Assembly (NCBI GenBank): GCA_943787175.1 | Contig: CALSLK010000015.1 | Location: 76,788-140,787 of the forward strand | Source: an uncultured Alphaproteobacteria bacterium | GTDB lineage: Bacteria; Pseudomonadota; Alphaproteobacteria; SP197 | Reading direction: 5' to 3' | DNA: 64,000 nt | Shown here: positions 7,403-34,820 of the stretch, in pieces | How the letters are laid out: every line of letters begins with the position of its first letter | How positions within the stretch are numbered: the stretch's first letter is position 1 | The notes under the pieces: model-generated | Databases searched by the model: none | The model's input: the letters and a program-made list of their open reading frames with translations, nothing else | Told to the model about the DNA's origin: nothing | Made by a program: the position numbers and the translations under genes

Positions 7403-7418
7403 AGAATAGGGGCCGCGA

Positions 7419-8543
7419 TCATCGCGAAATCAAGGAAATCCTGTTTCCCGGATGCCGTTCGACACGGCCCGCAAGCTCGAGTTCCAGCAACAAAATCTGG
7501 GCCTCAGACGCAGTTACTTGGCACCGGCGTACCAGTTCGTCAACCTCGACTGGCGTCGCTCCCAGGGCGGAAAGCACTCTTTGCTGCGCATCCTGGCTTG
7601 GTGGAGGATCGTCTGGAATCGGGCCGAAATCGAAACCTTCGGGCTCGGGCTCATGGGGTTGAATCGGAATTGAACGGCCAGGTTCACGAAGCAGGGAAAG
7701 AACGTCTTCGGTACTCTCCACCAGTGCCGCTCCATCCTTGATCAGACGGTTCGGCCCCCTGGCCCTGGGATCACCCGGACTGCCTGGAATGGCAAAGACA
7801 TCGCGGCCGTTTTCTGCGGCCAGGCGCGCGGTGATCAACGCACCGGACCGTTCGGTCGCCTCAACAACCACAACGCCCAATGCCAGGCCGGCAACGATAC
7901 GGTTGCGGCGGGGGAAGTGCCCTGATCGTGGGGTAAGCCCCAGGGGCTGATCGCATAGCAGCAATCCTTGCTCGGCAATGGATTGGTAGAGTGATGCGTT
8001 TTCAGGCGGATAAATGTTGTCGATGCCGCCGGCCAGAACCGCGATGGTGCCAGTTGCCAGCGAACCGTGGTGCGAGGCTGTGTCGATGCCGCGTGCAAGG
8101 CCTGAAACCACGACGTAACCGGCTTCACCAAGTTCACGTGCCATGGATTCTGCAAAACGTCGCCCGGCAGCTGATGCATTGCGTGCGCCGACCATGCCGA
8201 CCATGGGGCGCGACAGCAGAGTCGGGTCTCCTAACGCGGTAAGGACAGGAGGAGGGTCGTAGATCTGGTTAAGCAGCTCGGGATAGGTGGAGTCATCGCT
8301 GGCAATGAGCACCCCTCCCAGTTTTGAAAGCGCGGCTACTTCGGCGGCAACGCTCTCCGGGTCGGGTGCCTTGATGGCCCTGCTTCGTCCTCCTCGCCTT
8401 GTCATCTCAGGCAAGGCTTCAAGCGCTGCTTCCGGTGAACCAAAGCGACGTACCAGCGCTTGATAAGTGCGGGAACCTACATTCTCCGCGCGGGCAAGCC
8501 GAAGGCGTGCAATCAGACCATCACGGTCTGCACGTGGCGTCAT
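7419..8543 (-). CDS. dprA: DNA processing protein DprA (Smf)
   Basis: 374 aa; Rossmann-like DprA core (GMVGARNASAAG...VVVSGLARGIDTASH) and C-terminal winged-helix region. Confidence 0.9.
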   Translation of the reverse strand: MTPRADRDGLIARLRLARAENVGSRTYQALVRRFGSPEAALEALPEMTRRGGRSRAIKAPDPESVAAEVAALSKLGGVLIASDDSTYPELLNQIYDPPPVLTALGDPTLLSRPMVGMVGARNASAAGRRFAESMARELGEAGYVVVSGLARGIDTASHHGSLATGTIAVLAGGIDNIYPPENASLYQSIAEQGLLLCDQPLGLTPRSGHFPRRNRIVAGLALGVVVVEATERSGALITARLAAENGRDVFAIPGSPGDPRARGPNRLIKDGAALVESTEDVLSLLREPGRSIPIQPHEPEPEGFDFGPIPDDPPPSQDAQQRVLSALGATPVEVDELVRRCQVTASEAQILLLELELAGRVERHPGNRISLISR

Positions 8544-9253: not shown

Positions 9254-10531
9254 TTATCCCTCTGACGAAAGGTCGAAAACCGTGCGGCCGCTGATGACGG
9301 TTCGGACTGCGCGCCCCTGTACCGGGCGGCCATCGAAGGGAGAGTTCTTCGACTTGCTCTGGAAGGCCTTGGAATCGATCCGCCACGGTGCTTCAAGGTC
9401 AATCAGAACCAGGTCGGCAGGCCCATCCTTGGCCAGTCTTCCGGCCCTGAGTTTAAGCAGGTCTGCCGGTGCGCTGGTCACCGTTTCCAGCGCGCGGGCA
9501 AGCGTCAGGTGTTCGTTGTGCACCAACTCCAGAACGAGCGGCAGCATGGTCTCAAGGCCAACGATGCCAAAGGCCGCCTGGACGAATGGCTGGCGTTTGC
9601 TGTCCTGATCGTGGGGCGCATGGTCGCTGGCGATGGCATCGATGGCGCCGTCCCTTAGCCCCGCGACCACGGCCTGGCGATCATCTTCCGAACGCAAAGG
9701 TGGCGCGCACCTTGGCAAAGGTGAGGTAGTCGCCCACCGCGTTTTCGTTGAGCGCGACATAGTGCGGAGCGGTATCGGCCGTCACGCGGACACCACGTGC
9801 CTTGGCCCTGCGCACGATGTCGATGGTTTCTGCTGTCGTGACGTGCGCCAGATGCAGGCGTCCGCCGGTCATCTCTGCCAGGCGTACATCGCGCGCAGCC
9901 ATGATGGCTTCGCTTTCGGGTGCCATGCCGGGCAAGCCCAGGCGCGTCGAAATCTCGCCGCTGTTCATGGCGCCGGAACCCGACAGGTTCATGTCTTCGG
10001 GTGGTGAATGAACATGGCATCGAAGATCGTGCCGTAGGAAAGGGCGCGGCGCAGGACGTTGGCGTTCATAATGGTGTTGAGGCCATCGGAGAAGGCAACG
10101 GCACCGGCTTCCTGCAGCAAACCGATTTCGGTCAGCTGTTCGCCTTTGCGCGCCCTGGTGATGGCGGCGATGGGGTGCACCTTGACCAGCGAGGTCTCGC
10201 GCGCGCGGCGTTCGATGAAGTGGACCAGCGCAACATCGTCGATCGGCGGATTGGTGCTGGGCATGCAGGCGATCGTGGTGATGCCGCCAACCGCTGCCGA
10301 CCGGCTGCCGCTATGGATGGTTTCCTGATGTTCGAATACCGGGCTCGCGCAGATGCGCGCGCATGTCGACCAGACCCGGAGCCAGAACCAGGCCTCTTGC
10401 GTCGATCTGCTCGATGTCTTCGGCCAAGCGCTCTGCCGTGATATGGCGCCCAGATCCGCGATGTTGTCGCCGTCTGAGATCAAGCCGCCGATCTTCGTCG
10501 AGGCCGCTGGCAGGGATCGACAAGCGTGCAT
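9254..10531 (-). pseudogene. pyrC: dihydroorotase (pyrC), reading frame interrupted at least four times
   Basis: Dihydroorotase segments appear in three minus-strand frames: N-terminal [13 protein letters not shown] / [14 protein letters not shown] / [23 protein letters not shown], central CMPSTNPPIDD, C-terminal AIDAIASDHAPHDQDSKRQPF...GLETMLPLVL. TGAATG junction with the pyrB stop. Confidence 0.7.
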
Positions 10532-11560
10532 TCAGATAGGCGACGCGCCCGCCTTCTGCTTTTTGATCGAAAGGTCGGCAATCCGGGCCATCACTGATTG
10601 TGCTCCGGGTTGTCGAGATTGCGGGCCAGAGACCTCCAGGCAGGCCTGGCGCACGGCCACGCCCATCTCGACCTGATCGAGAATGACGCTGCGGTTGATG
10701 TCGTCGGCGACTTCGCTGTCGATCTCGATGCCGCGGTTCATGGGGCCGGGATGCATGATGAGCGCATCGGGCTTGGCGACGGCCAGCTTGTCGTAGATCG
10801 AGGCCGTAGAACTGGAAGTACTCGCGTTCGGACGGCACGAAGCTGCCCTGCATGCGTTCGGTCTGCAGGCGCAGCATCATCACGATATCGCACGTCTTTC
10901 AGGCCTTCGCGCATGTCGTGGATGCACCTCGACCCCATAACGGTCCGCTTTGGTCGGCAGCAGAGTCGGCGGCGCCACCAGCCGCACGCGCACGCCCATG
11001 GTGTTGAAGAGCAGGATGTTGGAGCGCGCCACGCGGCTGTGGGCGATATCACCGCAGATCGCGACGGTCAGGCCCGAAAGTGTTCCCAGGCGCCGACGGA
11101 TGGTCAGCGCATCCAGTAGGGCCTGTGTCGGATGTTCATGGCTGCCGTCGCCCGCGTTGATCACCGCAGCATTGACCGCGTTGGCGAGCAGCTTGACCGC
11201 GCCGCTGTCGGGGTGGCGCACGATCAGGACATCCGGGTGCATCGCGTTCAGCGTCGCTGCCGTATCGATCAGGGTTTCGCCCTTCTTGATGGCGCTGGTC
11301 GTGGGCGACATGTTGATGACGTCGGCGCCCAGTCGTTTGCCCGCAAGCTCGAACGACGTGCGCGTGCGCGTCGAGCTTTCGAAGAACATGTTGATCTGGG
11401 TGCGACCGTGCAGCGTGTTCTGCTTCTTCTCGGCGCGCCGATTAAGCGCGACGTACGAATCGGCGAGATCGAGCAGATGCACGATGTCCTGGGGCGACAA
11501 ATCCTCGATCCCGAGGAGATGGCGGTGGGTGAAACGGTATGGGGATGGATCAGCTGTCAT
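10532..11560 (-). pseudogene. pyrB: aspartate carbamoyltransferase catalytic subunit (pyrB), about three frame shifts
   Basis: N-terminal 226 aa intact ([20 protein letters not shown]). The C-terminal part continues in other frames ([29 protein letters not shown]; [19 protein letters not shown]...VRQACLEV). Confidence 0.75.
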
Positions 11561-11597
11561 GCTGAAACCGGGTTCTTAAAGAAAGACCTGCCCGCCG

Positions 11598-12510
11598 TCA
11601 TCCGAAAAGCGCCAACATGATCGGAATGCTGAGGATAGCTCCGGCAGTGCCTGTGCTGATGATCCCTGCCATCAGTTCTGCATTGCCGCCCATTTGGCGG
11701 GCAAGGACATAGGCTGCGGGTGAACAGGGCAGGGCTGCAAACAGCACCACAATGGATTTGGCATAACCGTCCACGCCCAGCATGGAACAGAAAACCCAGG
11801 CGACAAATGGGAGGACAAAGAGTTTCAGCAGGCTGGCCAGAGCAAGGGTTCGCTTGTCCGACCGCATGCTCTGGAGATGCAGGGCCGCACCAACCGAGAT
11901 CAGGCCAAACCCAAGAGCGGCGGCACCCAGGATGGCCAGCGTTCTGTCGAGGACCAGAGGAAGCCGTATCTCCAGCAGATTCATGGAGAGCCCGATAATG
12001 CAGGCCAACACGACCGGGTTTGTCGCAATCGCACGCAGGACACTCGGAATGGAGGTCCCGGTCGGCGAAGCATACCGTGCCAGCGCTGCCGTGCTGATGA
12101 CATTCACGGTGGGAATGTAGGCCGCCAGTAGAAGTGCGAAGAGTGCCAGGCCGTCGTCACCGTAAAGCGCATAGGCCGCAGCCAACCCGGCGTAACTGTT
12201 GAACCGGATTGCGCCCATCAGGAATGAAGGGAAATCCTTGCCGTTCAGGCCCAGGGGTTTGCGCAGGGTCAGAACGAGCAGCGTGACAACGACGGCCGGC
12301 AGCAACAGAGAGAGCAGGGATGTCAGCACCTCGCCATCGGGAAGGCTGGTCGTCATCAGGGTGTGACCAGCAGAGAGGGAAACAGCACGAAGTAGGTGAT
12401 CCGCTCGACCGTTCGCCAGAACGTCACATCGGGTGCCAGCCATCGACGCAGGCCGATGCCCAGGGCAATGACCAGAAAGATCGGCATGAGAGCCGTGAAG
12501 ATGGCGATCA
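11598..12510 (-). pseudogene. AEC (auxin efflux carrier) family transporter, one frameshift near 12360
   Basis: N-terminal MIAIFTALMPIFLVIALGIGLRRWLAPDVTFWRTVERITYFVLFPSLLV is in one frame and the C-terminal 281 aa (…GIISTGTAGAILSIPIMLALFG) in another. Confidence 0.6.
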
Positions 12511-12520
12511 TGGCCTGATC

Positions 12521-13072
12521 TCAGCCAAGTCTGACAAACTGGTCCAACGCACCTTGCAGGATCACGGCTGCCGCGACCCGGTCGATACGCTCGGCCTGAT
12601 CGTCGGCGCTGATGCCGGCCTCTGTCATGATTTCCTCCGCCTCGAACGACGACAGGCGCTCATCCCACATTAGAACCGGCAGGCCCAGGCCGCGAATGAG
12701 GTTGTTACCCATCTGGCGTGCGGACTGTGCGCGGGGTCCCTCGCTGTCATCCATGTTGAGCGGATAGCCCAACACGATGCCTACAACGTTACGCTCATGG
12801 ACAAGCGCTCCGAGGCGTTCCAGATCCTGTGTCCATTTCTTGCGGCGAATGGTCTCGACAGGTGTCGCAATCCTGCGCGTTGCGTCGCTTGCCGCAATAC
12901 CGATCGTGCGTGTGCCGGGGTCGAGCCCGAGCAGGACACCCGAGGCACAAATCTCCAGAAACAGGGTTGCGTCCCGCACAGGCTTGTCGCGTTTTGGGGT
13001 GGGTGTTAGGTTCGCGCGCTCCGGGTCGTTCTCGGTCACGTTTTTCCAAGCCATTTCAAGGGTTTGAGGCAA
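12521..13072 (-). CDS. ruvX: Holliday-junction resolvase-like nuclease RuvX (YqgF)
   Basis: [17 protein letters not shown]...[20 protein letters not shown] core. The ORF carries about 40 extra N-terminal codons, so the real start is probably an internal GTG near 12985. Confidence 0.8.
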
Positions 13073-13085
13073 GGGACATTGTCAT

Positions 13086-13373
13086 ATGTCGCTCGATAAA
13101 GCCACTGTCGCCAGGATATCGCGTCTGGCGCGCATCGCTACCACCGAAGAAGAGCAAGAGCGCCTGGCAGGCGAGCTTGGCGGCATCCTGGCATGGGTGG
13201 AGCAACTGGGTGAGGTCGACACCGATGGGGTGGAGCCGATGACCAGCGTTGTGGAGATGCTTTTGAAGTCCCGCGAAGACGTGGTGAGCGATGGCGGCAT
13301 TGCTGATGACGTCGTCAGAAACGCGCCGAAATCAGCGCATGGATTCTTTGTTGTGCCCAAGGTGGTGGAATGA
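13086..13373 (+). CDS. gatC: Asp-tRNA(Asn)/Glu-tRNA(Gln) amidotransferase subunit C
   Basis: 95 aa; typical GatC sequence ([31 protein letters not shown]). Confidence 0.9.
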
Positions 13374-14839
13374 CCGACCTGACCGATCTCTCAATTGCAC
13401 AAGCACGCGACCTGCTGGCCAAGGGCGACCTGTCGTCGAAAGAGCTGACGCAGGCCCAGGTCACATCGATGGAAGGCAAGCGTGAGCTGAACGCCTTTAT
13501 CACCGAGACGCCTGATAAGGCCCTGGAGATGGCTGAGGCTTCCGACACAAGGCGCGCCAAGGGCGAAACTGGCAAGCTGGAAGGCATACCCGTCGCCATC
13601 AAGGACCTGTTTTGCACCAAGGACGTGCTGACCACGGCGGGCTCCCACATTCTGGACGGATTCCGCCCGTTTTATGAATCGAGCGTTACCACCAACATGT
13701 TCCGCGAAGGCGCGGTCATGCTGGGCAAGACCAACCTTGATGAATTCGCCATGGGCTCGGGCAACCTCACGAGCTACTACGGCGGCGCTATCAACCCCTG
13801 GCGCGCCAAGGGCGACAATCGCAACCTGGTTCCCGGTGGCTCTTCTGGTGGCTCGGCTTCAGCAGTGGCCGGCCGTATGGCGCTGGGCGCTACGGGCACC
13901 GATACCGGCGGCTCGATCCGTCAGCCTGCAGCGTTTACCGGGATCGTTGGCTTGAAACCGACCTATGGGCGTTGTTCGCGCTGGGGCATCGTGGCGTTTG
14001 CCTCGTCGCTCGATCAGGCTGGTCCCATGACCCGCTCTGTGCGCGATTCAGCGATCATGCTGGGTGCCATGGCAGGCCATGACCCCAAGGACTCGACCTC
14101 CGCGGATATTGCGGTTCCCGATTTCGAGGAAGGCCTCAACGGCGGCGTGAAAGGCCTCACGATCGGCATTCCCAAAGAGTATCGCGTTGACGGCATGCCC
14201 GAAGAAATCGAGACACTCTGGCAGCAGGGCATCAAATGGCTCGAGGAGCAGGGCGCCAGAACGGTCGAGATCAGCCTGCCGCACACCAAGTACGCATTGC
14301 CTGCCTATTACATCGTGGCGCCTGCTGAGGCCTCGTCGAACCTTGCCCGTTACGATGGCGTGAAGTTCGGCCTGCGCGTTGAATCCGATGACCTCACAGA
14401 GATGTACGAAAAGACCCGGGCGGAAGGGTTTGGGGCCGAGGTGAAACGCCGGGTGCTGATCGGGACCTATGTGCTCTCGGCTGGTTACTACGATGCCTAT
14501 TATCTCCAGGCTCAGAAGGTGCGCACGCGTATTGCTGATGACTTCAAACAGGCCTGGCAGCAGGTCGATGCAATTCTGACACCTGCTACACCTTCGGCTG
14601 CGTTCAGCGCCGATGATCCACCCAGTGATCCGCTTGCCATGTATCTCAACGATGTCTTTACCGTGCCGGTTAACCTGGCAGGACTGCCAGGTATCTCGGT
14701 GCCTGCAGGCCTCACCGGCGATGGATTGCCGATGGGATTGCAGGTGATCGGCAAGGCGTTTGATGAAGCAACCGTGCTGCGCATCGGCCAGTCGCTGGAA
14801 GATGCAGCAGGGTTTGATGCCCGCCCGGAAGGATACTGA
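13370..14839 (+). CDS. gatA: Glu-tRNA(Gln) amidotransferase subunit A
   Basis: 489 aa amidase-signature protein ([12 protein letters not shown]); overlaps gatC stop. Confidence 0.95.
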
Positions 14840-25629: not shown

Positions 25630-25726
25630 TGACGGTTGTCATAGTGTTGCCGCTTGTTTGCGTTAACCTGTTTTCCCGTCGAGATTGAGGTCGCCCTTAG
25701 GCTCGCTGTCCACAAGGAGAAGCAGA

Positions 25727-27763
25727 ATGAGAGATAGACTTGGCCTTTCCGCCGTTGCGGTTGCGGGCCTCCTCGCAGCATCGGTTCCCGCCCACGCACA
25801 GACCAGCGGTACTGCGTTTGATGTCGATGGCGATCCGGCTTTGCGCTGTGCCGTGTCACGCGCGGTCGAGCTCTCGAATGTGGAATTGTTGGGCCAGGTC
25901 GTCGAAAGCGTGGGGGTTTCTTCCTCGTTTGATGCCTTGTCGCGCGGCGATGCGGCCTCAGCGAGCCCCGAACATGTCGGCCTGCTGAAATCGCTCGGCC
26001 TGGTTGGTCAGGATGGCTCCAGCCTGACATCGGCGGGCCAGATGCTGGCCGATATCCGTTCAGCAGGTACGCGCGCTGTTTCGACCTCAGCACTGACCCT
26101 GAACGCGCCGCTTCAACATGACATCACCCTTCCTGGGACTCCTGCCAGGTTCTCCCTGTCGACTGGTGCTGGCGGTACCCTGCGCATCGTCGTGTCTCCG
26201 GCAGGCAACGGCAGTGCAGGATGTTCCGGTGACTTCGACCCTGTCGTGCGGGCAACACAGCCCGGTATCGCAGGCATCGAACATGTCGCGCGCGGCGCGG
26301 GCGAGGACCGTCAGGCAACGCTTTACCTCTACGACACCCCCGCTGGCGCCAGCATTGATATCGCCGTCAACGATATCGTTGGCGCGCCCGGCTCGTTCAG
26401 CATTGTTGCTGAGGCCGCCCTCGACGAAGTTCCCCTCCAGGATGGTACCGAACCCTATGTGGTTCTGGGTGACGGTTCGCCGGCCTATCTGCCGGTCGAG
26501 GTGGCGCAAGGCGAAAGTGCCGCTGTTGCGCTCTCGATTTCCTATGATGCGTGGGAACCCTGGTTTGCCGTTACCGGCCTGAGTGGTGCCCAACCCGGCG
26601 TGCGCCTTTACGAGGCCGATGGCTTCGGCGACTACCTGAGTGAACCTGTTTTCCGTTCGTCCTATCTCCCCAATGGAGAGGCGCGCGTCGATATGGCTGA
26701 GCCGCTTTATGGCGGTGAATACCTGATGGTGATCGAGGATCTGCAGCGCAACGCGGGAACGTTCCTGATTGAGTACAGCTCGGATGGATTTGCCTCGCAG
26801 CCGAGAATCTACGGCGACCTCTACCTGAATGAGGAAACGCTGGAGTATCTGGGCACGGATCTGGCCTTCACGGTCGAGGAACTGGGTTGGTACTACTTCT
26901 CCACGACGACCTACGACGATGTCGATCCGATCCTTAGCCTGCTCGATGCCGATGGCTGGTTTCTCTATGAATCGGACGATGATGCATTTTCGCTCAACCC
27001 GCTGATCGTCGCGGAGTTGGCACCTGGCGATTACACCCTGGCGCTGGATGGTTTCGATGGTGCTGTAGGCGAGGTTTATCTCTCGGCCTATCGCATTGAG
27101 CCCATGCATGTGTCGCTCAATACCCTGGGCATGAGCCAGCAGATCTCGGACGATTTCACCCAGGCGCCCGCCAATGTCTACATCATTGACGGAGCCGAAG
27201 GTAAGCTCGTCGACTTCGATGTCGACACATCAGCCAGCGGGTTCGACTCGACCCTCGCGTTTTATGACTCTTGGGACATGACGGTCTGGGTGAGCGATGA
27301 TGACGGCGGCATCGACTATGGCAGCCGGGTCGTAGACACCTTTGAAGGTGAAGGTCTGATCGCTGTTGTTGCCGGCTTTAACGGTGAGCGTGGAGGCCAG
27401 TATGATCTCACCGTGGTCGATCACGCTATCGTAGAAGGTCTGCCGGCCTCCGCCGCGGTTGTTGAGCCCGGAGGACCGCCGGTAACCGGTGATCTGCCTC
27501 TTGACGGCGATATTGCCTGGGTTCGTATGCCCGCTCAGGCCGATGGTTGGTTCGACATCGAGGTGACGTCCAACCTCTATTACTTCCGCGTCGATCTCTA
27601 TCTTTACGAAGAAGGGTTCGGTTACACCTGGTACGACGGCTACGACGGTTACGAGGGAGAAGTTTACCTCTCGACCGATGGCGACGGCGTCAGCGACACC
27701 TTGATCCTTGTGCGCAACACCAGCGGTGAGGGTGGCGGCAACTTCGAGGTAAGTGTCCGTTAG
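25727..27763 (+). CDS. secreted protein composed of tandem PPC (pre-peptidase C-terminal)-like repeats, no catalytic domain evident
   Basis: RBS aaggagaag then MRDRLGLSAVAVAGLLAASVPAHAQ signal peptide. At least four repeats of the PPC-like pattern Y.F....G..........D..L.L.D..G..L.ESDDDG....P.I.....G.Y.L...G (for example DPILSLLDADGWFLYESDDDAFSLNPLIVAELAPGDYTLALDG; FDSTLAFYDSWDMTVWVSDDDGGIDYGSRV); very Asp/Gly/Tyr-rich. Confidence 0.6.
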   Translation: MRDRLGLSAVAVAGLLAASVPAHAQTSGTAFDVDGDPALRCAVSRAVELSNVELLGQVVESVGVSSSFDALSRGDAASASPEHVGLLKSLGLVGQDGSSLTSAGQMLADIRSAGTRAVSTSALTLNAPLQHDITLPGTPARFSLSTGAGGTLRIVVSPAGNGSAGCSGDFDPVVRATQPGIAGIEHVARGAGEDRQATLYLYDTPAGASIDIAVNDIVGAPGSFSIVAEAALDEVPLQDGTEPYVVLGDGSPAYLPVEVAQGESAAVALSISYDAWEPWFAVTGLSGAQPGVRLYEADGFGDYLSEPVFRSSYLPNGEARVDMAEPLYGGEYLMVIEDLQRNAGTFLIEYSSDGFASQPRIYGDLYLNEETLEYLGTDLAFTVEELGWYYFSTTTYDDVDPILSLLDADGWFLYESDDDAFSLNPLIVAELAPGDYTLALDGFDGAVGEVYLSAYRIEPMHVSLNTLGMSQQISDDFTQAPANVYIIDGAEGKLVDFDVDTSASGFDSTLAFYDSWDMTVWVSDDDGGIDYGSRVVDTFEGEGLIAVVAGFNGERGGQYDLTVVDHAIVEGLPASAAVVEPGGPPVTGDLPLDGDIAWVRMPAQADGWFDIEVTSNLYYFRVDLYLYEEGFGYTWYDGYDGYEGEVYLSTDGDGVSDTLILVRNTSGEGGGNFEVSVR

Positions 27764-27847
27764 AGCGACGGCCTCACATTGCACTGGAATGCATCGCCCC
27801 TTGTCCTGATCGAACTTGATCGGGGCAGGGGGCGAACCTTGCGTGGC

Positions 27848-28255
27848 TCAGGTTTTGCTACCGAAACCGGATCGTTGCAGCAGATCATCGTCCGTGACGA
27901 ACCAGGTGACGTTGTCCGTCATCATGGAGTGCACGCTGGGTGGCAGCACTGTGGGATCGTCCAATGTCGCTGTGTAGATGTGAATTTCGCCGGGCCATGG
28001 GTCGCCCGCGTAGGTGAGGGATGTGCCGCATTGGCGACAGAATCCGCGCCGGACACCGGGCGATGATTCATAAATCGCCTGTTCACCTGCCAGCAAAGCA
28101 AAGTTCTCTAAGGCAACACCGACAAAGCCTGAAACCGGTGATCCCGTCGCCCGCTGACAGTCCCTGCAATGACAGATGCTGGAGAACCTGGCCGGCTCAC
28201 CGATCTGATAACGCACGGCCCCGCACAGGCAGCCACCTTCATGGTGACTGGTCAT
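27848..28255 (-). CDS. GFA family protein (glutathione-dependent formaldehyde-activating enzyme/CENP-V-like Zn carbon-sulfur lyase), paralog 1
   Basis: MTSHHEGGCLCGAVRY...ICHCRDCQRATGSP...GFCRQCGTSL: the full GFA cysteine set. Start taken at Met-46 of the track ORF. Confidence 0.8.
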   Translation of the reverse strand: MTSHHEGGCLCGAVRYQIGEPARFSSICHCRDCQRATGSPVSGFVGVALENFALLAGEQAIYESSPGVRRGFCRQCGTSLTYAGDPWPGEIHIYTATLDDPTVLPPSVHSMMTDNVTWFVTDDDLLQRSGFGSKT

Positions 28256-28682
28256 CGCCTTGCCCATGATGGTGTTTGGCGCCGGGGCAGAGATTTTCCG
28301 GATCAATCCATGACGGCAATTCATCGCCGTGGAACACTTCGTTGGGCGGAAAGGCCTCGATGTCATCAAGACTTGATGATGCCACAGCAACCAGTGTGTC
28401 GGTCTGAAAACGCTGATCTGGATAATCCGTGTTCCGGTAGTTGAGCGCTGTGCCGCAACGTCCGCAGAACTGACGGATGACCGTGTCAGAAGATTGGAAG
28501 GTTACAGGTTCGCCTTTGGTAATGGCGTAACCGGAATTGGGTACGGCGATCCAGGGTATAGCCGCTGCGCCGCTTGCGCCGCGACAGGTTGCACAGCAGC
28601 AATAACACTGGATCACGGGCTGGGCCGAAACGCGGTAGCGGACATCGCCGCAAAGGCATCCACCGTCATGGTGTTCTGTCAT
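28239..28682 (-). CDS. GFA family protein, paralog 2
   Basis: MTEHHDGGCLCGDVRY...CYCCCATCRGASG...FCGRCGTAL. Confidence 0.8.
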   Translation of the reverse strand: MTEHHDGGCLCGDVRYRVSAQPVIQCYCCCATCRGASGAAAIPWIAVPNSGYAITKGEPVTFQSSDTVIRQFCGRCGTALNYRNTDYPDQRFQTDTLVAVASSSLDDIEAFPPNEVFHGDELPSWIDPENLCPGAKHHHGQGDDQSP

Positions 28683-29062
28683 GTCGTCGCTCCTGATAGG
28701 CGAAGATGGAGCCAGGCAAGGCGCTCTTCTTCATGGAAGAACCCTGACGGGGCAAAGGGAGTGGAGTCGTCCAGAGTTGGTGACATGACATGCACTTCAT
28801 CGGGCGTGTCATCAGCCTCATAGGTGAGTGCTGTGCCGCAAGTCGCACAAAAACCCCGCCGCACACCTGGAGACGATGCGTAATGGGTCGCGGGATCCCT
28901 GGTCCAGGCGAACGCTCCTGGCTTGAGGTCAACAAAGGCTGCGACCGGCCCGCCGGTCGCCATGCGGCAACTGCGGCAATGACAGTAGTTGGCAACTGCG
29001 CCGACATCATCAATCGCATAGCGGACTGCGCCGCACATGCACCCACCCTCGTGTCGTGCCAT
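28679..29062 (-). CDS. GFA family protein, paralog 3
   Basis: MARHEGGCMCGAVRY...CHCRSCRMATGGP...FCATCGTAL; ATGA-type overlap with paralog 2. Confidence 0.8.
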   Translation of the reverse strand: MARHEGGCMCGAVRYAIDDVGAVANYCHCRSCRMATGGPVAAFVDLKPGAFAWTRDPATHYASSPGVRRGFCATCGTALTYEADDTPDEVHVMSPTLDDSTPFAPSGFFHEEERLAWLHLRLSGATT

Positions 29063-29074
29063 AGCAAACTCCCG

Positions 29075-29872
29075 TTAGTGCTCGCGCAGCAGGCGCCCGT
29101 AGCCTTCTATGCGATCGTCAATGCCGGCAAGGCGCATAACATCCCAGATCATGGCCTGGTTGCTGCACACGGCGGGTTTCCCCGCGCGTTGTTCGATCTC
29201 CTCGATCACATCCAGAGTTCGCAGCGCGCTGCAGGAGATGAAGATGGCGTCAGCGTCGGCACGGTCGAGTTCCAGCGCAAAGTCACGCAGATACTCAGGC
29301 TCAATTCGCGACATGTCCTCGTCCATCTCGACATTGAGGCCCTGGATATCGAGCACCTCGAACCCCTGTTCCACTAGATAATCGGCTTCAATCCGATTGA
29401 TCTCATCGAGATAGGGTGTGCCAACGACAATCTTTCTGGCGCCCAATGCCTTGAGGCCGCGCACGACCCCGGTCACCAACGTGGTTGTGCGGGCCTGGGG
29501 TTGCTGCATCGCCAGTGCTGCGCAGACGTTTTCTTCTCCGATGACAATGCTGCCCGATGTGCAGGAGAGCGTGACAGCATCCAGCGTTCCGTTCGGCACG
29601 ATAAGTGACGCGCTTGTCGAAAGGTGCGGCAGCATGGCGGCAAGTGTTTCGACAGTGACGCTGTTGGCCATCGTGACCCGGCTGAAGTGGACGCCGATGT
29701 CGTCAGGAACAACGCCGCGCACATCGTCTTCGCTGGTCTGGTCCATGGCTAGCAGGACAAACCCGAGTTTGGCACGGTCGTGGCGGCCGCCATCAAAGCG
29801 CACAGCTCGTGGTTTCGATGCAGGCCAGTCACCTTTAGATACCGATGCAGTCGGCATGTGGTCAGAACTCAC
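29075..29872 (-). CDS. Asp/Glu/hydantoin-racemase superfamily protein (maleate cis-trans isomerase / arylmalonate decarboxylase-like), paralog 1
   Basis: 265 aa; two conserved Cys motifs (LSCTSGSIVIG and AIFISCSALRT) at positions expected for the two-base Cys pair of maleate isomerase/racemases. Confidence 0.7.
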   Translation of the reverse strand: MSSDHMPTASVSKGDWPASKPRAVRFDGGRHDRAKLGFVLLAMDQTSEDDVRGVVPDDIGVHFSRVTMANSVTVETLAAMLPHLSTSASLIVPNGTLDAVTLSCTSGSIVIGEENVCAALAMQQPQARTTTLVTGVVRGLKALGARKIVVGTPYLDEINRIEADYLVEQGFEVLDIQGLNVEMDEDMSRIEPEYLRDFALELDRADADAIFISCSALRTLDVIEEIEQRAGKPAVCSNQAMIWDVMRLAGIDDRIEGYGRLLREH

Positions 29873-30647
29873 GGAACAGGCGGCCCAGTCCGCTCAGACG
29901 ATCATCAATTCCCGCCCGGCGCAGGCAATCCCATAACATCGCCTGGTTCGACGTAACGACCGGTTTGCCCGTGCGTTGCTCCAGCGCATCAATGATCTCG
30001 ACGGACCGCAGTGCACCACAGGAGATGAAGATGGCGTCGGCTTCCGGCAGGTCAACTTCGGCGCCGTAGTTCAGGAGATAGTCGGGCGTGACGCGGACCA
30101 TGTCGGCATCATCGGCGATGTTGAGCCCCTGAATGTCGAGGATATCGAAACCCTTGGCAGCCATATAGTCAGCTTCGATAACGTTGACCTCATCCAGATA
30201 GGGTGTGGCCACCACAATACGATTGGCGCCCAACGCTTCGAGAGCTCGCATGACACCGGTGATGAGGGAGGTTGGTTTGGCACCGGGCGCGCCGCGGTTC
30301 AGCTCGGCAAAAACGTTGTCTTCGCCGATCACGACGCTGCCGGAGGTGCAGGCATAACAGGCCACATCGAGAGTCTTGTCTGGCAGGATGCGCCCGGCGG
30401 CGTCACCAATACCCGATTTCATGGCGGTCAAGGTCTCGACGCTGACCCGGTTAGCCATCGGCGCGCGGGCAAAGTGGACACCCACGCCATCGGGCGCATG
30501 GCGCATCATGTCAGCCTCGACGGTCTGCTCCATGGCGAGCAGGACGAAACCGATGGACGCTCTGTGATTGCGCCCTTCGTCAAACTCTGGGGAGCGCTGT
30601 TTTGAGGCAGGCCAGAGCTTGCCTGACCCGGCGTCGTCAGGCGCCAC
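29862..30647 (-). CDS. Asp/Glu/hydantoin-racemase superfamily protein, paralog 2
   Basis: 261 aa; ACYACTSGSVVIG and AIFISCGALRS; aligns full-length with paralogs 1 and 3. Confidence 0.7.
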   Translation of the reverse strand: MAPDDAGSGKLWPASKQRSPEFDEGRNHRASIGFVLLAMEQTVEADMMRHAPDGVGVHFARAPMANRVSVETLTAMKSGIGDAAGRILPDKTLDVACYACTSGSVVIGEDNVFAELNRGAPGAKPTSLITGVMRALEALGANRIVVATPYLDEVNVIEADYMAAKGFDILDIQGLNIADDADMVRVTPDYLLNYGAEVDLPEADAIFISCGALRSVEIIDALEQRTGKPVVTSNQAMLWDCLRRAGIDDRLSGLGRLFREF

Positions 30648-30650
30648 GGC

Positions 30651-31430
30651 TCAGTGCTCCCGGTAAAGGCGACCAAGGCCTTCCATACGATCTTCGATCC
30701 CGGCCAGCCGCATCATGCGCCAGATCAGCGCATGATTGCTGCCGACAACGGGCTTGCCGGTGCGCTGTTCGATCTCTTCGACAACTTCGATCGTGCGAAG
30801 CGCACTGCAGGAAATGAAAATGCCGTCCGCGTCGGGGCGATCGATTTCCAGTGCAAGCTTGATGATGTCTTCAGGTTCAACCATCACCATGTCCTGACCG
30901 CACAGGAGGCAGAGGCCCTGTATGTCGAGCACATCGAAGCCGCGCTCGACCAGGAAATCTGCTTCAAAATGGTTGATCTCATCGATGTAGGGGGTGCCGA
31001 CGACAATCTTCTGCATGCCAAGGACTCGCATGGCTTCCACCACGCAGGTGACCAGAGACGTGGTCTTGGCCTGCGGCTGGGGTTTGGCAAGCGCCTTGGC
31101 AACATTGTCTTCACCAACAACCACACTGCCCGATGTGCAGACATAGGCGATGGCATCCATATCAGGAGGCAGGACACCGGCTGACCGGCTCAGGTCATCT
31201 CCGACAGCCGCCAGGGTCTCTACCGTCACCGAATCATCGAACGGGGTTCGCGTGTAGAAGACGCCAACGTCGTCAGGAACGACACGGCGGATATCGTCAT
31301 CGGCAGTTTCTTCGGTTTCAAGAAGAACGAACCCCAGGCGTCCCCGCGTATGGCGACCTTTGCCAAGATCAATGGAACGTGGCGTGGAATTGGCCCATCG
31401 CTGAGTGGTCTCGGGTACTGCTGCCATCAC
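30651..31430 (-). CDS. Asp/Glu/hydantoin-racemase superfamily protein, paralog 3
   Basis: 259 aa; IAYVCTSGSVVVG and GIFISCSALRT. Confidence 0.7.
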   Translation of the reverse strand: MMAAVPETTQRWANSTPRSIDLGKGRHTRGRLGFVLLETEETADDDIRRVVPDDVGVFYTRTPFDDSVTVETLAAVGDDLSRSAGVLPPDMDAIAYVCTSGSVVVGEDNVAKALAKPQPQAKTTSLVTCVVEAMRVLGMQKIVVGTPYIDEINHFEADFLVERGFDVLDIQGLCLLCGQDMVMVEPEDIIKLALEIDRPDADGIFISCSALRTIEVVEEIEQRTGKPVVGSNHALIWRMMRLAGIEDRMEGLGRLYREH

Positions 31431-31473: not shown

Positions 31474-32247
31474 TCAATCTTCCAGTTCGCACCAGATCGG
31501 TGTGTGGTCGGATGCTTTTTCCTGTGCGCGCGGCCCTCTGTCGATCTCGCAGGCCGTCAGGCGGTCTGCGGCCAGCGGCGAGAGCAAAAGGTGATCGATG
31601 CGTACGCCCAGGTCACGCTGCCAGGCGCCACCCTGATAGTCCCAGAAGGACCAGGCGCGCTGTTCGTGCGGGTGGAGCGTGCGAAACGCCTCGGTGTAAC
31701 CAAGCCACAGCAGCTCACGGAAATGCGCGCGCGATTGCGGCAGGCACAGGGCGTCATCGGCCCAGCCTATGGGGTCATGAACGTCGGCATCGGTCGGGCA
31801 TACGTTGTAATCGCCGCCTAGAACAACGACCTCGTCGTGCTCGAGCAGCTCACGTGCGTGGTCAACCAGCCTGCGCATCCAGGCAAGCTTGTAGTCGTAT
31901 TTGGGGCCTGGCGTTGGATTGCCGTTGGGCAGATAGATCGAGGCGACGCGCACACCGTTGGTAAAGGCCTCCAGGTAGCGGGCCTGTTCATCCTCGTCAT
32001 CGCCAGGCAGCACCTTGGTCTCGATTTCCATGGGAAACTTCGAGAGCACGGCCACACCGTTATAGGATTTCTGGCCGGCTACTGCGCAGTTGTAGCCCAG
32101 CTCCTCGATCTCCATGAACGGGAAGCCGTCTTCGACGGTCTTGAGCTCCTGCAGCAGGGCAACATCAGGCGCAGCTTCTTTCAGCCAGGCCACCACATTG
32201 GGCAGGCGCGCCTTGATCGAGTTCACATTCCAGGAAGCGATTTTCAT
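31474..32247 (-). CDS. xthA: exodeoxyribonuclease III
   Basis: 257 aa; MKIASWNVNSIKARL...WDYQGGAWQRDLGVRIDHLLLS...ASDHTPIWCELE. Confidence 0.9.
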   Translation of the reverse strand: MKIASWNVNSIKARLPNVVAWLKEAAPDVALLQELKTVEDGFPFMEIEELGYNCAVAGQKSYNGVAVLSKFPMEIETKVLPGDDEDEQARYLEAFTNGVRVASIYLPNGNPTPGPKYDYKLAWMRRLVDHARELLEHDEVVVLGGDYNVCPTDADVHDPIGWADDALCLPQSRAHFRELLWLGYTEAFRTLHPHEQRAWSFWDYQGGAWQRDLGVRIDHLLLSPLAADRLTACEIDRGPRAQEKASDHTPIWCELED

Positions 32248-32286: not shown

Positions 32287-33009
32287 TCACCTTTGAACTT
32301 CGGTTTCGACATTCACTTCAACCTCACGCGGGATGACGATCGGCGACACTGCCCAGACCAGCACGGTTTCCCGGTCGGTCCTGTTGCGCCCTCGGTGGCG
32401 TCGGCGCGCATCAAAGCTGTAGCTGTCGCCTTCATAGAGCGTGATGACCTCTTCGCCCAAGGTCATTTCAAGCTCGCCCTTAATAACGACGCCATGCTCC
32501 TCTCCGTCATGGCGGTGCATGGGCGTGACAGGACGCTCGGCGCCCGGCGCATAAACCGCCATGCCCATGTAGAAACGCCCGCCGATGGTCGACGAAAGCA
32601 GGCTGTCGGAATAGCCCAGCTCCTGTGCCGAACTGCCATAAAGCGTGTTGAGGTTGCGTCGTGATCCCGCGCGCACGATGCATGCGCGCTCCTCGGGTCC
32701 TGCGCCGCGACGCGGAGCAAAGAACCAGCCCATGTCGACATCCAGGGCGTTGGCGATCGCCTGAAACATCTCGTGGGAGGGGTTACCGGCGTCGCGTTCG
32801 ATGACGCTGAGGTAACTTACGGAAATACCCGTCAACTCACTTAGTCGCTTGAGTGAAAGGCCGCGCGCCTTGCGCAGTTCGCGGATTTCCGACCCGGCTG
32901 AAGGAACTCTGACGGGATAGGGCGCTCGATCATCGTTCGAGGGAGTCGTGTTCAGCTTTGTAACGGACGAGTCGGGCATCTGGGTTCCATGGACAGTTAC
33001 GCGATCCAT
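32287..33009 (-). CDS. XRE-family HTH transcriptional regulator with C-terminal cupin domain
   Basis: HTH: IRELRKARGLSLKRLSELTGISVSYLSVIERDAGNPS. Cupin: MGMAVYAPGAERPVTPMHRHDGEEHGVVIKGELEM. The start may be an internal Met (MPDSSV). Confidence 0.8.
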   Translation of the reverse strand: MDRVTVHGTQMPDSSVTKLNTTPSNDDRAPYPVRVPSAGSEIRELRKARGLSLKRLSELTGISVSYLSVIERDAGNPSHEMFQAIANALDVDMGWFFAPRRGAGPEERACIVRAGSRRNLNTLYGSSAQELGYSDSLLSSTIGGRFYMGMAVYAPGAERPVTPMHRHDGEEHGVVIKGELEMTLGEEVITLYEGDSYSFDARRRHRGRNRTDRETVLVWAVSPIVIPREVEVNVETEVQR

Positions 33010-33224: not shown

Positions 33225-34820
33225 GTGGACGTCAACAAGGACTTGGAACGACTCTGGTCTCTGGTGGAATCGCGCAACATGGATCGGCGTGATTTTGTCA
33301 GCGGTGCCATGGCGGCGGGCATCTCGGTTACAGCAGCAACGTCTTTCTGGGCGTCGCATGCAAAAGCGGATGGCCATCACGGCGGCCATGTCCGTATCGG
33401 TGCGGATGGCGGAGCTGCCATCGACACCTTCAATCCGCTACAGTCGATCGGCACCGACCACATCACGATGGCGATCCTGTCGCGCTTCGATACCCTTACC
33501 GAAACTGCGGCGGATGGTTCACCTGTCGGTAGCCTGGCGGAAAGCTGGGACACTTCGGCCGACGGCAAGACCTGGACATTCAAGCTGCGCGAAGCCGAGT
33601 TCCACAACGGCAAGACCGTGACGGCCGATGATGTGGTCTGGTCGCTCAAGCTCCAACAGAGCGATGACAACACCTATGCGGACGGCAAAACTCTGGCAAC
33701 CGGCCTGGAAGAGATTCGCGCCGACGGTCCCGACACCGTTGTTCTTGTGCAAAAAGAGGTCAACTTCGACCTGCCGTTCCACCTTTCCGGAGTCGGCCTT
33801 ATCATCGGCCCTGATGGAACAACCGATTGGGAGGCCGCGCCGGGGTCGGGTCCTTATGTGCTGGAGGAGTTCACGCCGGGCATCAACTTCATCGGCCGCA
33901 AGTATGAAAACTATTACCGCGAGGATGACGGCTTCTTCGATTCCGTCGAAATCCTGAACATCGAAGATCCGGCTTCCCGTGCAAGCGCACTTCTGGGCGG
34001 CTCGGCCGACGTGATCGCCCAGCCGGATGCACGTTCTGCAGGAATGCTGAATCAGACTGCGGGTTACAGCCTGCTCGAGGTGCCGGGCACGACGCATTAC
34101 ACGACCGCCATGCGAACTGACCTTGATCCCTTCACGGACAACAATCTACGCTTGGCAGTGAAGTACGGCATCAAACGTCAGGAGATCGTGGACAAGATTT
34201 TCGGTGGTTACGGTTATGTCGGCAACGACCACCCCATCGGGCGCAACCAGCAGTTCTTCAATACCGAACTGCCCCAGCGTGAATACGATACTGACAAGGC
34301 GACCTACTACCTTAAGCAGGCAGGGTTCGACAGCATCGACCTGACGCTGGATGCCAGCGACGGCGCTTTTGCCGGCTCTGTCGACATGGGCGTACTGATG
34401 GCCGAATCCATGCGCCCGACCGGCATCAACATGGACGTCAACCGTGTTCCCGGTGACGGTTACTGGTCAGATATCTGGCTCGTCGCGCCGTGGTGCTGCG
34501 TCTACTGGAACGGTCGTCCCACGGTCGACTGGATGCTTTCGGGCAGCTACGTCTCGACGTCCTCGTGGAACGACACCTATTTCAAGAACGAGCACTTCGA
34601 CGCCACGCTTGCTGCAGCACGCGGTGAACCCAATCAGGAACTCCGCAAGGAGATGTACTTCGAACTCCAGGAGATCCTGAACATGGAGGGTGGCACCACG
34701 GTCATAGCCTTTGCCAGCTCGCTGATCGGCGCTTCGGATGCCCTGGGCCACGGACCGGTCGGGGGTTCACGTCGCATGGATGACAGCCGCCTGTCGCGCC
34801 GCTGGTGGTTCAACGCCTGA
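33225..34820 (+). CDS. ABC transporter substrate-binding protein, family 5 (peptide/opine/nickel type), Tat signal
   Basis: 531 aa; twin-arginine motif DRRDFVSGAMAAG...ASHAKA; family-5 SBP body (W.F.LR.....NG..VTADDVV). No permease or ATPase genes adjacent. Confidence 0.85.
   Translation: MDVNKDLERLWSLVESRNMDRRDFVSGAMAAGISVTAATSFWASHAKADGHHGGHVRIGADGGAAIDTFNPLQSIGTDHITMAILSRFDTLTETAADGSPVGSLAESWDTSADGKTWTFKLREAEFHNGKTVTADDVVWSLKLQQSDDNTYADGKTLATGLEEIRADGPDTVVLVQKEVNFDLPFHLSGVGLIIGPDGTTDWEAAPGSGPYVLEEFTPGINFIGRKYENYYREDDGFFDSVEILNIEDPASRASALLGGSADVIAQPDARSAGMLNQTAGYSLLEVPGTTHYTTAMRTDLDPFTDNNLRLAVKYGIKRQEIVDKIFGGYGYVGNDHPIGRNQQFFNTELPQREYDTDKATYYLKQAGFDSIDLTLDASDGAFAGSVDMGVLMAESMRPTGINMDVNRVPGDGYWSDIWLVAPWCCVYWNGRPTVDWMLSGSYVSTSSWNDTYFKNEHFDATLAAARGEPNQELRKEMYFELQEILNMEGGTTVIAFASSLIGASDALGHGPVGGSRRMDDSRLSRRWWFNA

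Follow-up and report, generated by a model that had tools for sequence, protein, structure and literature searches.

The window analysed here, 64,000 nucleotides (nt) of contig CALSLK010000015.1 from an uncultured Alphaproteobacteria bacterium, carries on its minus strand six successive open reading frames (ORFs) at 27848-31430, three encoding EutA-like proteins (A1, A2 and A3, upstream) and three encoding GFA-domain proteins (G1, G2 and G3, downstream). On present evidence the array is an ordinary accessory set of genes, specific to its lineage, and not a new system. A preliminary description of the same DNA had reported six packed, co-directional genes, three of each of two families, and the ORFs, Pfam assignments and junctions confirm this gene content, with minor changes to the start positions of A3, G1 and G3:

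A1, 30651-31430, minus strand: GTG start, with an ATG at 31427; 258-259 amino acids; EutA-like protein of the Asp/Glu-racemase superfamily, resident xthA-linked lineage.
A2, 29862-30647, minus strand: 261 amino acids; EutA-like protein of a widespread, M24-hydrolase-associated subfamily.
A3, 29075-29857, minus strand: 260 amino acids; alternative GTG start at 29872; EutA-like orphan copy, this species only.
G1, 28679-29062, minus strand: 127 amino acids; GFA-domain protein; ATG at 29062 preceded by a GGGAG Shine-Dalgarno sequence.
G2, 28239-28682, minus strand: 147 amino acids; GFA-domain protein of a separate subfamily, with extra cysteines (CYCCCATC).
G3, 27848-28255, minus strand: 135 amino acids from MTSHHEGGC; alternative ATG at 28267; core GFA copy.

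The junctions support the operon-like packing that had been proposed. A1 and A2 are separated by 3 nt as read from the sequence, and A3 and G1 by 12 nt with the GGGAG motif inside the gap. Two overlaps had also been claimed: the one between G1 and G2 is a true ATGA overlap (28679-28682), whereas that at 29862/29872 (11 nt) holds only if A3 uses the GTG at 29872. With the ATG at 29857, which is the start picked by gene callers on near-identical contigs, A2 and A3 are instead 4 nt apart. G2 and G3 overlap by 17 nt with the MTSHHEGGC start at 28255, which agrees with the N-termini of orthologues, or by 29 nt with the ATG at 28267; a G3 start at the TTG at 28390, implied by the ORF first listed, was rejected. 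Plus-strand antisense ORFs (e.g. 28790-29377 and 29976-30605) were set aside as high-GC shadow ORFs, Pfam matches and purifying selection both lying on the minus strand. The GC content of the region is flat and unremarkable (0.59-0.60). The array is unchanged on 16 contigs from several samples, and contig L001 (L numbers denote the loci and contigs compared) differs from the array of the window by only one substitution, at 29750.

By a genome scan, the window belongs to a clade of uncultured marine Alphaproteobacteria, represented by metagenome-assembled genomes labelled 'Rhodospirillaceae bacterium' or 'Alphaproteobacteria bacterium'. The order argS-dGTPase-erpA-xthA-[slot]-ilvD-EamA-EamA is kept across 23 species-level genomes, and orthologous arrays are present in 11 related species. 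Directly 3' of xthA, 22 of the 23 genomes carry an A1 orthologue (57-91% identical), the gap between the two genes ranging in relatives from -28 to +116 nt, with overlap in most. The content of the slot varies as follows:

1 A and 0 G genes: L018, L021-L030 (11 genomes).
1 A and 1 G genes: L031, L032.
2 A and 1 G genes: L011, L016.
1 A and 2 G genes: L014.
1 A and 3 G genes: L019, L020.
2 A and 3 G genes: L013, L015, L017.
3 A and 3 G genes: the species of the window only.
0 A and 3 G genes: L092.

The 3+3 arrangement, previously treated as a unit, dissolves on this comparison, the relatives having 1-3 A and 0-3 G genes and L092 having 0 A with 3 G. A tree of flanking housekeeping genes separates two subclades, one A-only and the other G-bearing. 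Within the latter, all 12 genomes have G3 and 11 have A1; L092 falls inside this subclade, where it has lost A1 and kept three GFA genes. Orthologues of G1 occur in L013, L015, L017, L019, L020 and L092, and A2 is patchy among the relatives. The A-to-G junctions measure 2-29 nt across relatives, irrespective of which A and G genes abut.

Several relatives show further changes in this region. The G1 orthologue appears split in two pieces in L013 (~9470-9960, with masked N bases) and L015 (3666-4094), owing to either a frameshift or an artefact of assembly. In L011, an inserted McrBC restriction system (11012-13859) lies just past ilvD. L031 (15441-16515) and L032 (15031-15988) carry two more tandem GFA genes of another subfamily, ~7 kb from the xthA slot and on the opposite strand. 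In L092, genes for a trimethylamine-methyltransferase-family (MttB-like) protein and a homocysteine S-methyltransferase (6421-7998 and 9902-10825) flank ilvD beside the GFA trio, a sign that this variable region may also serve methylated-amine metabolism.

Outside the clade, none of 64 A-family loci (59 genome loci and 5 looked-up loci) has an adjacent GFA gene; L058 and L088 contain weak GFA matches, not adjacent in an operon-like, co-oriented arrangement. Likewise, none of the 84 GFA loci beyond the A+G set (418 kb) has an A-family gene, among the matches listed in a metagenome search with a GFA alignment. These matches were all distant GFA proteins (34-50% identity), used as a random sample, and no new clade members were among those listed. 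The closest out-of-clade homologues of G3 (~50% identical) come from Rhodobacterales and are encoded beside LysR regulators. The refuting condition set in the preliminary description, that the two trios never co-occur outside this genome, thus has a divided outcome: other genomes do carry both families together, yet in these samples always at the one syntenic slot of a single clade. In the literature searched we found no paper linking GFA with maleate isomerase or arylmalonate decarboxylase (AMDase), in line with the earlier statement that no described pathway couples the two families.

The regular partner of the A family outside the clade is an M24/creatinase-type hydrolase, encoded at 46 of the 59 genome loci and all 5 looked-up loci, usually immediately adjacent. 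Frequent further members of the cluster are an ATP-binding cassette (ABC) transporter, a GntR/FCD regulator and an AtzE-like amidase accompanied by a small ORF of 68-77 residues. Examples are L007, L010, L012, L089 and ~40 further loci among L033-L091, with carriers among the Rhizobiales, Burkholderiales, Rhodobacterales, Desulfobacterales and Actinomycetota; in Pseudarthrobacter (L008) the additions are instead a D-amino-acid dehydrogenase, an asparaginase and RidA. Against the ectoine hydrolase DoeA the M24 proteins score 99-204 bits, the cut-off being 575. A2 nests among the EutA-like proteins of these clusters (Rhizobium, Labrys, Paraburkholderia, Roseovarius, Desulfobacterales, Acidimicrobiia, Pseudarthrobacter), A3 keeps their signature residues, and some of the clusters use a solute-binding protein homologous to one encoded in the window. 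In contrast to the array, they contain neither GFA genes nor xthA, and the window lacks their M24 hydrolase, amidase and GntR regulator. The M24 partner is found at none of the 22 clade loci and nowhere in the 64 kb. A literature search found no description of a cluster combining EutA-like, creatinase and amidase genes.

The paralogues of the array are distant from one another, with 50-60% identity among the A proteins and 34-47% among the G proteins (34-37% for G2 against G1 or G3). Of the two histories previously posed, an ancient trio or recent duplicates, these values point to ancient paralogy, and a recent tandem triplication was rejected on the same values (34-60% overall) and on the separate origins of the A copies. 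In a neighbour-joining tree of 92 A-family sequences, A1 orthologues form a clade of their own, all xthA-linked; A2 orthologues nest in the general family beside Rhizobium, Labrys and Pseudarthrobacter proteins, and A3 branches alone at the base. Proteins of Rhizobium, Mesorhizobium, Labrys and Pseudarthrobacter share 67-72% identity with A2. For A3, a collection of 5.8 billion proteins held no orthologue, the identity being 99% within its own species and 63% for the next best match. On this tree the three A genes have three different origins. In the GFA tree, the orthologues of G1 and G3 are sister clades, and those of G2 form a distant subfamily. Judged from these sequence comparisons, the array is the product of growth by accretion and not of triplication in situ.

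Orthologue comparisons gave ratios of nonsynonymous to synonymous substitution (dN/dS) of 0.05-0.25 for A1, A2, G1, G2 and G3 (~0.06 for A2, 0.09-0.20 for G3) and 0.04-0.2 for xthA and ilvD, values that are approximate since dS was saturated (above 1) in most comparisons. Because of these low ratios the array is, by this measure, functional and under purifying selection. Acquisition of the whole array as a horizontal island was rejected, the GC content being flat and the core synteny kept; A2 and the XRE/SBP5/S15 block alone look acquired.

Profile searches with hidden Markov models, the check suggested for the family assignments, place all six proteins far above the gathering scores. A1, A2 and A3 match PF17645 (Amdase) with 99.8, 111.5 and 109.2 bits (E-values 2e-28, 6e-32 and 3e-31; cut-off 25.9). 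Their best curated family is EutA (TIGR02990), aligned end to end with 192, 224 and 224 bits; as these scores lie under the equivalog cut-off of 318, A1-A3 were rejected as true EutA. Ten further members of the subfamily are likewise sub-threshold (189-216 bits), so that, on profile scores, the A subfamily is a sister family of EutA. The label 'maleate-isomerase-like' used in the preliminary description is generic only; EutA, though below its threshold, is the closest curated family. Among solved structures the A proteins match AMDase at E 1e-19 and maleate isomerases at E 1e-16 to 1e-17, the best matches as a group spanning E 1e-19 to 4e-16. With the maleate cis-trans isomerases (EC 5.2.1.1; Nocardia farcinica MaiA, Pseudomonas putida Iso) they share PF17645 and two catalytic cysteines, but the match to the isomerase structures (2XEC/2XED, 4FQ5/4FQ7; 62-65 bits) is about equal to the AMDase match, not closer, and far weaker than that to EutA. 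Gene calls within 10 kb each side of the array revealed no nicotinate, gentisate or maleamate genes.

The motifs CTSG and ISC(S/G)AL are present in A1, A2 and A3 and invariant over 8 homologues, as are C98, C208, T99, S100 and Y148 (A1 numbering), so that both cysteines and the oxyanion hole are conserved in the 8 sequences. Alignment to the Bordetella bronchiseptica AMDase reveals a common Cys188, Thr75-Ser76 and Tyr126 in addition to PF17645; the equivalent of position 189 is Gly in A2, as in the AMDase, and Ser in A1 and A3. The two differ at position 74, which is Gly in the AMDase and Cys (xCTSGS) in A1-A3, and in the aryl/hydrophobic pocket, whose residues P14, P15, L40, V43 and Y48 correspond to L, A, A, V and L in A2. 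The replacement of the second catalytic cysteine by Gly74 defines AMDases (PMC4996985, criterion 10). Arylmalonate decarboxylase activity (EC 4.1.1.76) was accordingly rejected for A1-A3, which also score 100-114 bits against NF052327 (cut-off 225). The alignments bear out the earlier observation that both catalytic-position cysteines are kept, as in racemases and isomerases rather than AMDases.

We propose that A1-A3 are cofactor-independent, two-cysteine (two-base) racemases, epimerases or isomerases, which would deprotonate and reprotonate the carbon beside a carboxylate with stabilisation by the conserved Thr-Ser/Tyr oxyanion hole. The partners of A genes elsewhere (M24 hydrolase, amidase, D-amino-acid dehydrogenase, RidA, peptide-type binding proteins) suggest that the likely substrates are small nitrogen-containing carboxylates from amino acids or peptides. 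Conservation of at least 90% in the general A family marks 88 alignment columns; 78 of them are retained in the A2 clade and 78 in A3, but only 55 in the A1 clade, which has clade-fixed replacements such as Q41E, H58F and D178G. This suggests a changed substrate pocket in A1, and on the strength of such remodelling A1 probably acts on a substrate other than that of A2 and A3.

EutA itself, known from ectoine and 5-hydroxyectoine utilisation in Sinorhizobium meliloti and Ruegeria pomeroyi, has the same superfamily fold and two cysteines as A1-A3, and its eutA-eutD arrangement is mirrored by the A2/A3 subfamily elsewhere (an M24 protein resembling DoeA/EutD, a GntR-type regulator and a transporter). 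Unlike that system, the array has no eutB, eutC, eutD, eutE, ehu or ueh within 10 kb each side, nor is there any M24/EutD-like gene in the 64 kb. The EutA reaction, an epimerase step in hydroxyectoine catabolism, has been proposed and not biochemically shown (PMC5924519, PMC13188858).

G1, G2 and G3 match PF04828 (GFA) with 71.8, 67.8 and 79.5 bits (cut-off 24.3; E-values 6e-20, 1e-18 and 3e-22), and none matches an NCBIfam family at E <= 0.01. The zinc ligands, noted earlier as kept in the three paralogues, are borne out by an alignment of 19 GFA sequences, in which the seven cysteines of the CxC...CxCxxC...CxxC pattern (C9, C11, C28, C30, C33, C73 and C76) are invariant. Gfa of Paracoccus denitrificans and the GFA domain of CENP-V have PF04828 and the seven cysteines, for a structural and a second zinc, in common with G1-G3. 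The relation to true Gfa is nevertheless remote: the G-protein profile matches 1X6M with 26 bits (E 7e-5, partial alignment), the closest structure being the uncharacterised 8AJQ with 61 bits. With this remote similarity, and with no flhA/fghA-type formaldehyde-oxidation genes (glutathione-dependent formaldehyde dehydrogenase, S-formylglutathione hydrolase) within 10 kb each side, the assignment of G1-G3 as S-(hydroxymethyl)glutathione synthase was rejected. The C-S bond chemistry that had been called well characterised for this family is itself disputed, and Gfa may merely bind glutathione (PMC4682968). Literature searches on 8AJQ and on new GFA functions returned no relevant paper. We therefore restrict the proposal for G1-G3 to that of two-zinc, seven-cysteine GFA-fold proteins that would bind a thiol or an electrophile.

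Contrary to the first description, 31430 is not where the co-directional string starts; it continues upstream to xthA and to an XRE-cupin gene. The flanking features are:

xthA, 31474-32247, minus strand: exodeoxyribonuclease III, 43 nt upstream of A1; TIGR00195 227 bits (cut-off 183), TIGR00633 223 bits (cut-off 99).
XRE helix-turn-helix and cupin gene, 32287-32979, minus strand: possible regulator, 39 nt upstream of xthA; Pfam HTH_3/HTH_31 and Cupin_2.
GC-rich hairpin, 27794-27835, minus strand: 3' of the G3 stop codon, between convergent genes; candidate terminator.
Family-5 solute-binding protein (SBP5) gene, 33225-34820, plus strand: PF00496; divergent from the string.

The gaps from xthA to G3 lie between -29 and +43 nt, and the spacer between xthA and A1 has no significant structure (z = -0.65). 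From this spacing, and from the lack of a terminator between xthA and A1, the array is probably co-transcribed with xthA as one unit, of which xthA is probably the first conserved gene. The XRE-cupin protein, which resembles PuuR at a sub-threshold 58 bits, is a possible regulator and its gene perhaps the first of the string; among the compared relatives it is present in the window, L015 and L017 only. The sole minus-strand sigma-70-like match of the region (33036-33008) lies just upstream of this gene, in a scan that performed no better than on shuffled sequence; promoter and terminator matches, internal terminator-like ones included, were no commoner than in shuffled sequence. The segment 27765-27850 around the hairpin folds with -34 kcal/mol (z = -2.55 against shuffles) and has no U-tract. 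Rfam families and tRNAs were not found in the window.

The neighbourhood had been taken for a catabolic island, which fails for most of the neighbours: ilvD encodes a true dihydroxy-acid dehydratase (TIGR00110, 704 bits against a cut-off of 618), and xthA, erpA and argS likewise belong to the core synteny. The idea survives for the XRE-cupin, SBP5 and CocE/NonD hydrolase genes, which alone are lineage-specific. These three form an insertion between erpA and xthA, complete in the window and L017; L015 has the XRE-cupin gene and a partial SBP5 gene running to the contig end. Of the three, only SBP5 recurs with the A family elsewhere, its full-length homologues (37-40% identity) lying divergent beside a EutA-like gene in the three unrelated loci L036, L050 and L075 and inside the cluster in L058. 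SBP5 may thus be functionally associated with the A genes, and the recurrence hints at a shared substrate. No ABC permease genes were called within 10 kb each side of the array, and the 64-kb window holds no homologues of the Rhizobium-type permeases.

On balance we favour, as somewhat the more probable account, a lineage-specific accessory string in an erpA-xthA-[slot]-ilvD context, vertically inherited, in which the two families are co-expressed without being obligately interdependent; each set persists without the other in related genomes, which argues against obligate interdependence. The slot would first have held one diverged EutA-like gene, A1, and then gained G3 and later G1 and G2. 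A2 would have been recruited next, from the widespread catabolic subfamily associated with M24 hydrolases, and A3, the orphan copy, gained last and in the species of the window only. Some observations weigh against this account. The A1+G3 pair is kept in 11 of the 12 G-bearing genomes with very short junctions, and paralogues of independent origin have piled up at one site, both of which would also be expected from a true shared pathway. In addition, the evidence for co-transcription with xthA consists of spacing and an absent terminator, the neighbour-joining trees of such short proteins are not robust, and the saturation of dS applies to the selection estimates.

A biochemical coupling of the two families is possible, and the most serious competitor of the accessory string, though we rate it as rather unlikely, is a single biochemical module in which A and G proteins act in one pathway on a thiol-conjugated or an unsaturated or amino dicarboxylate. 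The GFA proteins might, for example, make or break a C-S adduct and the two-cysteine enzymes epimerise or isomerise its carbon skeleton. Tight or overlapping junctions, purifying selection on A1, A2 and G1-G3, retention of A1 with G3 in 11 of 12 subclade genomes and the accretion of unrelated paralogues at a single site would all suit such a module, as would the insertion of SBP5, XRE-cupin and CocE/NonD genes beside the array in the closest relatives and the recurrence of the SBP5 subfamily near A genes. Yet every co-occurrence derives from one syntenic locus in one clade and so counts as a single evolutionary event, while A-only (11 genomes) and G-only (L092) states persist. Adjacency was seen neither at the 84 GFA loci, among the matches listed, nor at the 64 A loci elsewhere; the usual M24 partner of the A family is missing here, and catalysis of C-S bond formation by GFA proteins is in dispute.

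Less probable still is a stress operon centred on xthA, in which the GFA and perhaps the A proteins would handle DNA-damaging aldehydes or electrophiles and be co-expressed with exonuclease III. No partner of the array is more conserved than xthA. In the metagenome contigs L158 (3806-5490) and L123 (683-1919), which lack an A gene, erpA-xthA or xthA has one GFA gene from a further subfamily immediately behind it, and in L092 (4271-6417) xthA precedes three GFA genes and no EutA-like gene. Against this, only 2 of 83 other GFA loci, among the matches listed, are so arranged. The xthA genes of L158 and L123 are 61-65% identical to that of the window, and these contigs may be distant relatives sharing the slot rather than cases of independent xthA-GFA linkage. 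The slot could simply be tolerant of insertions, lying behind a gene that is expressed constitutively, and no literature support was found for a link between xthA and GFA.

Chance juxtaposition of decaying or non-functional paralogues, conceivable for two large families whose members often come in several copies in Alphaproteobacteria, is highly improbable given dN/dS well under 1 for five genes out of six, fully intact catalytic and metal residues, and an array identical on 16 contigs and kept in 11 species. A hetero-oligomeric enzyme complex of fixed 3+3 composition, which equal family numbers in this genome and overlapping starts suggestive of translational coupling might favour, has almost nothing to recommend it, as close relatives are 2+3, 1+3, 1+2, 2+1, 1+1, 1+0 and 0+3 and A3 is unique to this species; these comparative data contradict it, and the variable copy number and the differing origins of the A genes argue against a stoichiometric hetero-complex.

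Little of either large family has been characterised: GFA has thousands of bacterial members and one disputed activity, and EutA-like proteins have a proposed role only. A conserved operonic association might in principle offer a way into the function of both. A previously undescribed pathway of GFA and EutA-like proteins, expressed from the xthA operon of marine oligotrophic Alphaproteobacteria and acting on a thiol-reactive or thiol-conjugated small carboxylate or an aldehyde-derived adduct, seems to us unlikely; if real, it would be the first physiological role for the orphan GFA family outside formaldehyde metabolism. The ectoine-hydrolase-like M24 partner of the A family, for its part, leads to a widespread and unstudied catabolic cluster for small nitrogen-containing compounds. 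The occurrence of A-only, G-only and combined states behind xthA in one marine clade constitutes a natural experiment on whether the two families interact.

Two further observations concern the window outside the array. Between 37921 and 40544 (dGTPase, argS and SPOR genes) it has ~20 single-base insertions relative to the 99.8%-identical contigs L001, L002 and L004. These split argS and the dGTPase gene into several ORFs and look like assembly (indel) errors, not pseudogenes; they leave the six-gene array untouched. On the plus strand at 25685-27763, convergent with G3, lies a gene for a 692-amino-acid protein with an N-terminal signal-like segment and no Pfam match, which is absent from L011, L016 and L017 and present with 42-64% identity in L013, L014, L019 and L020.

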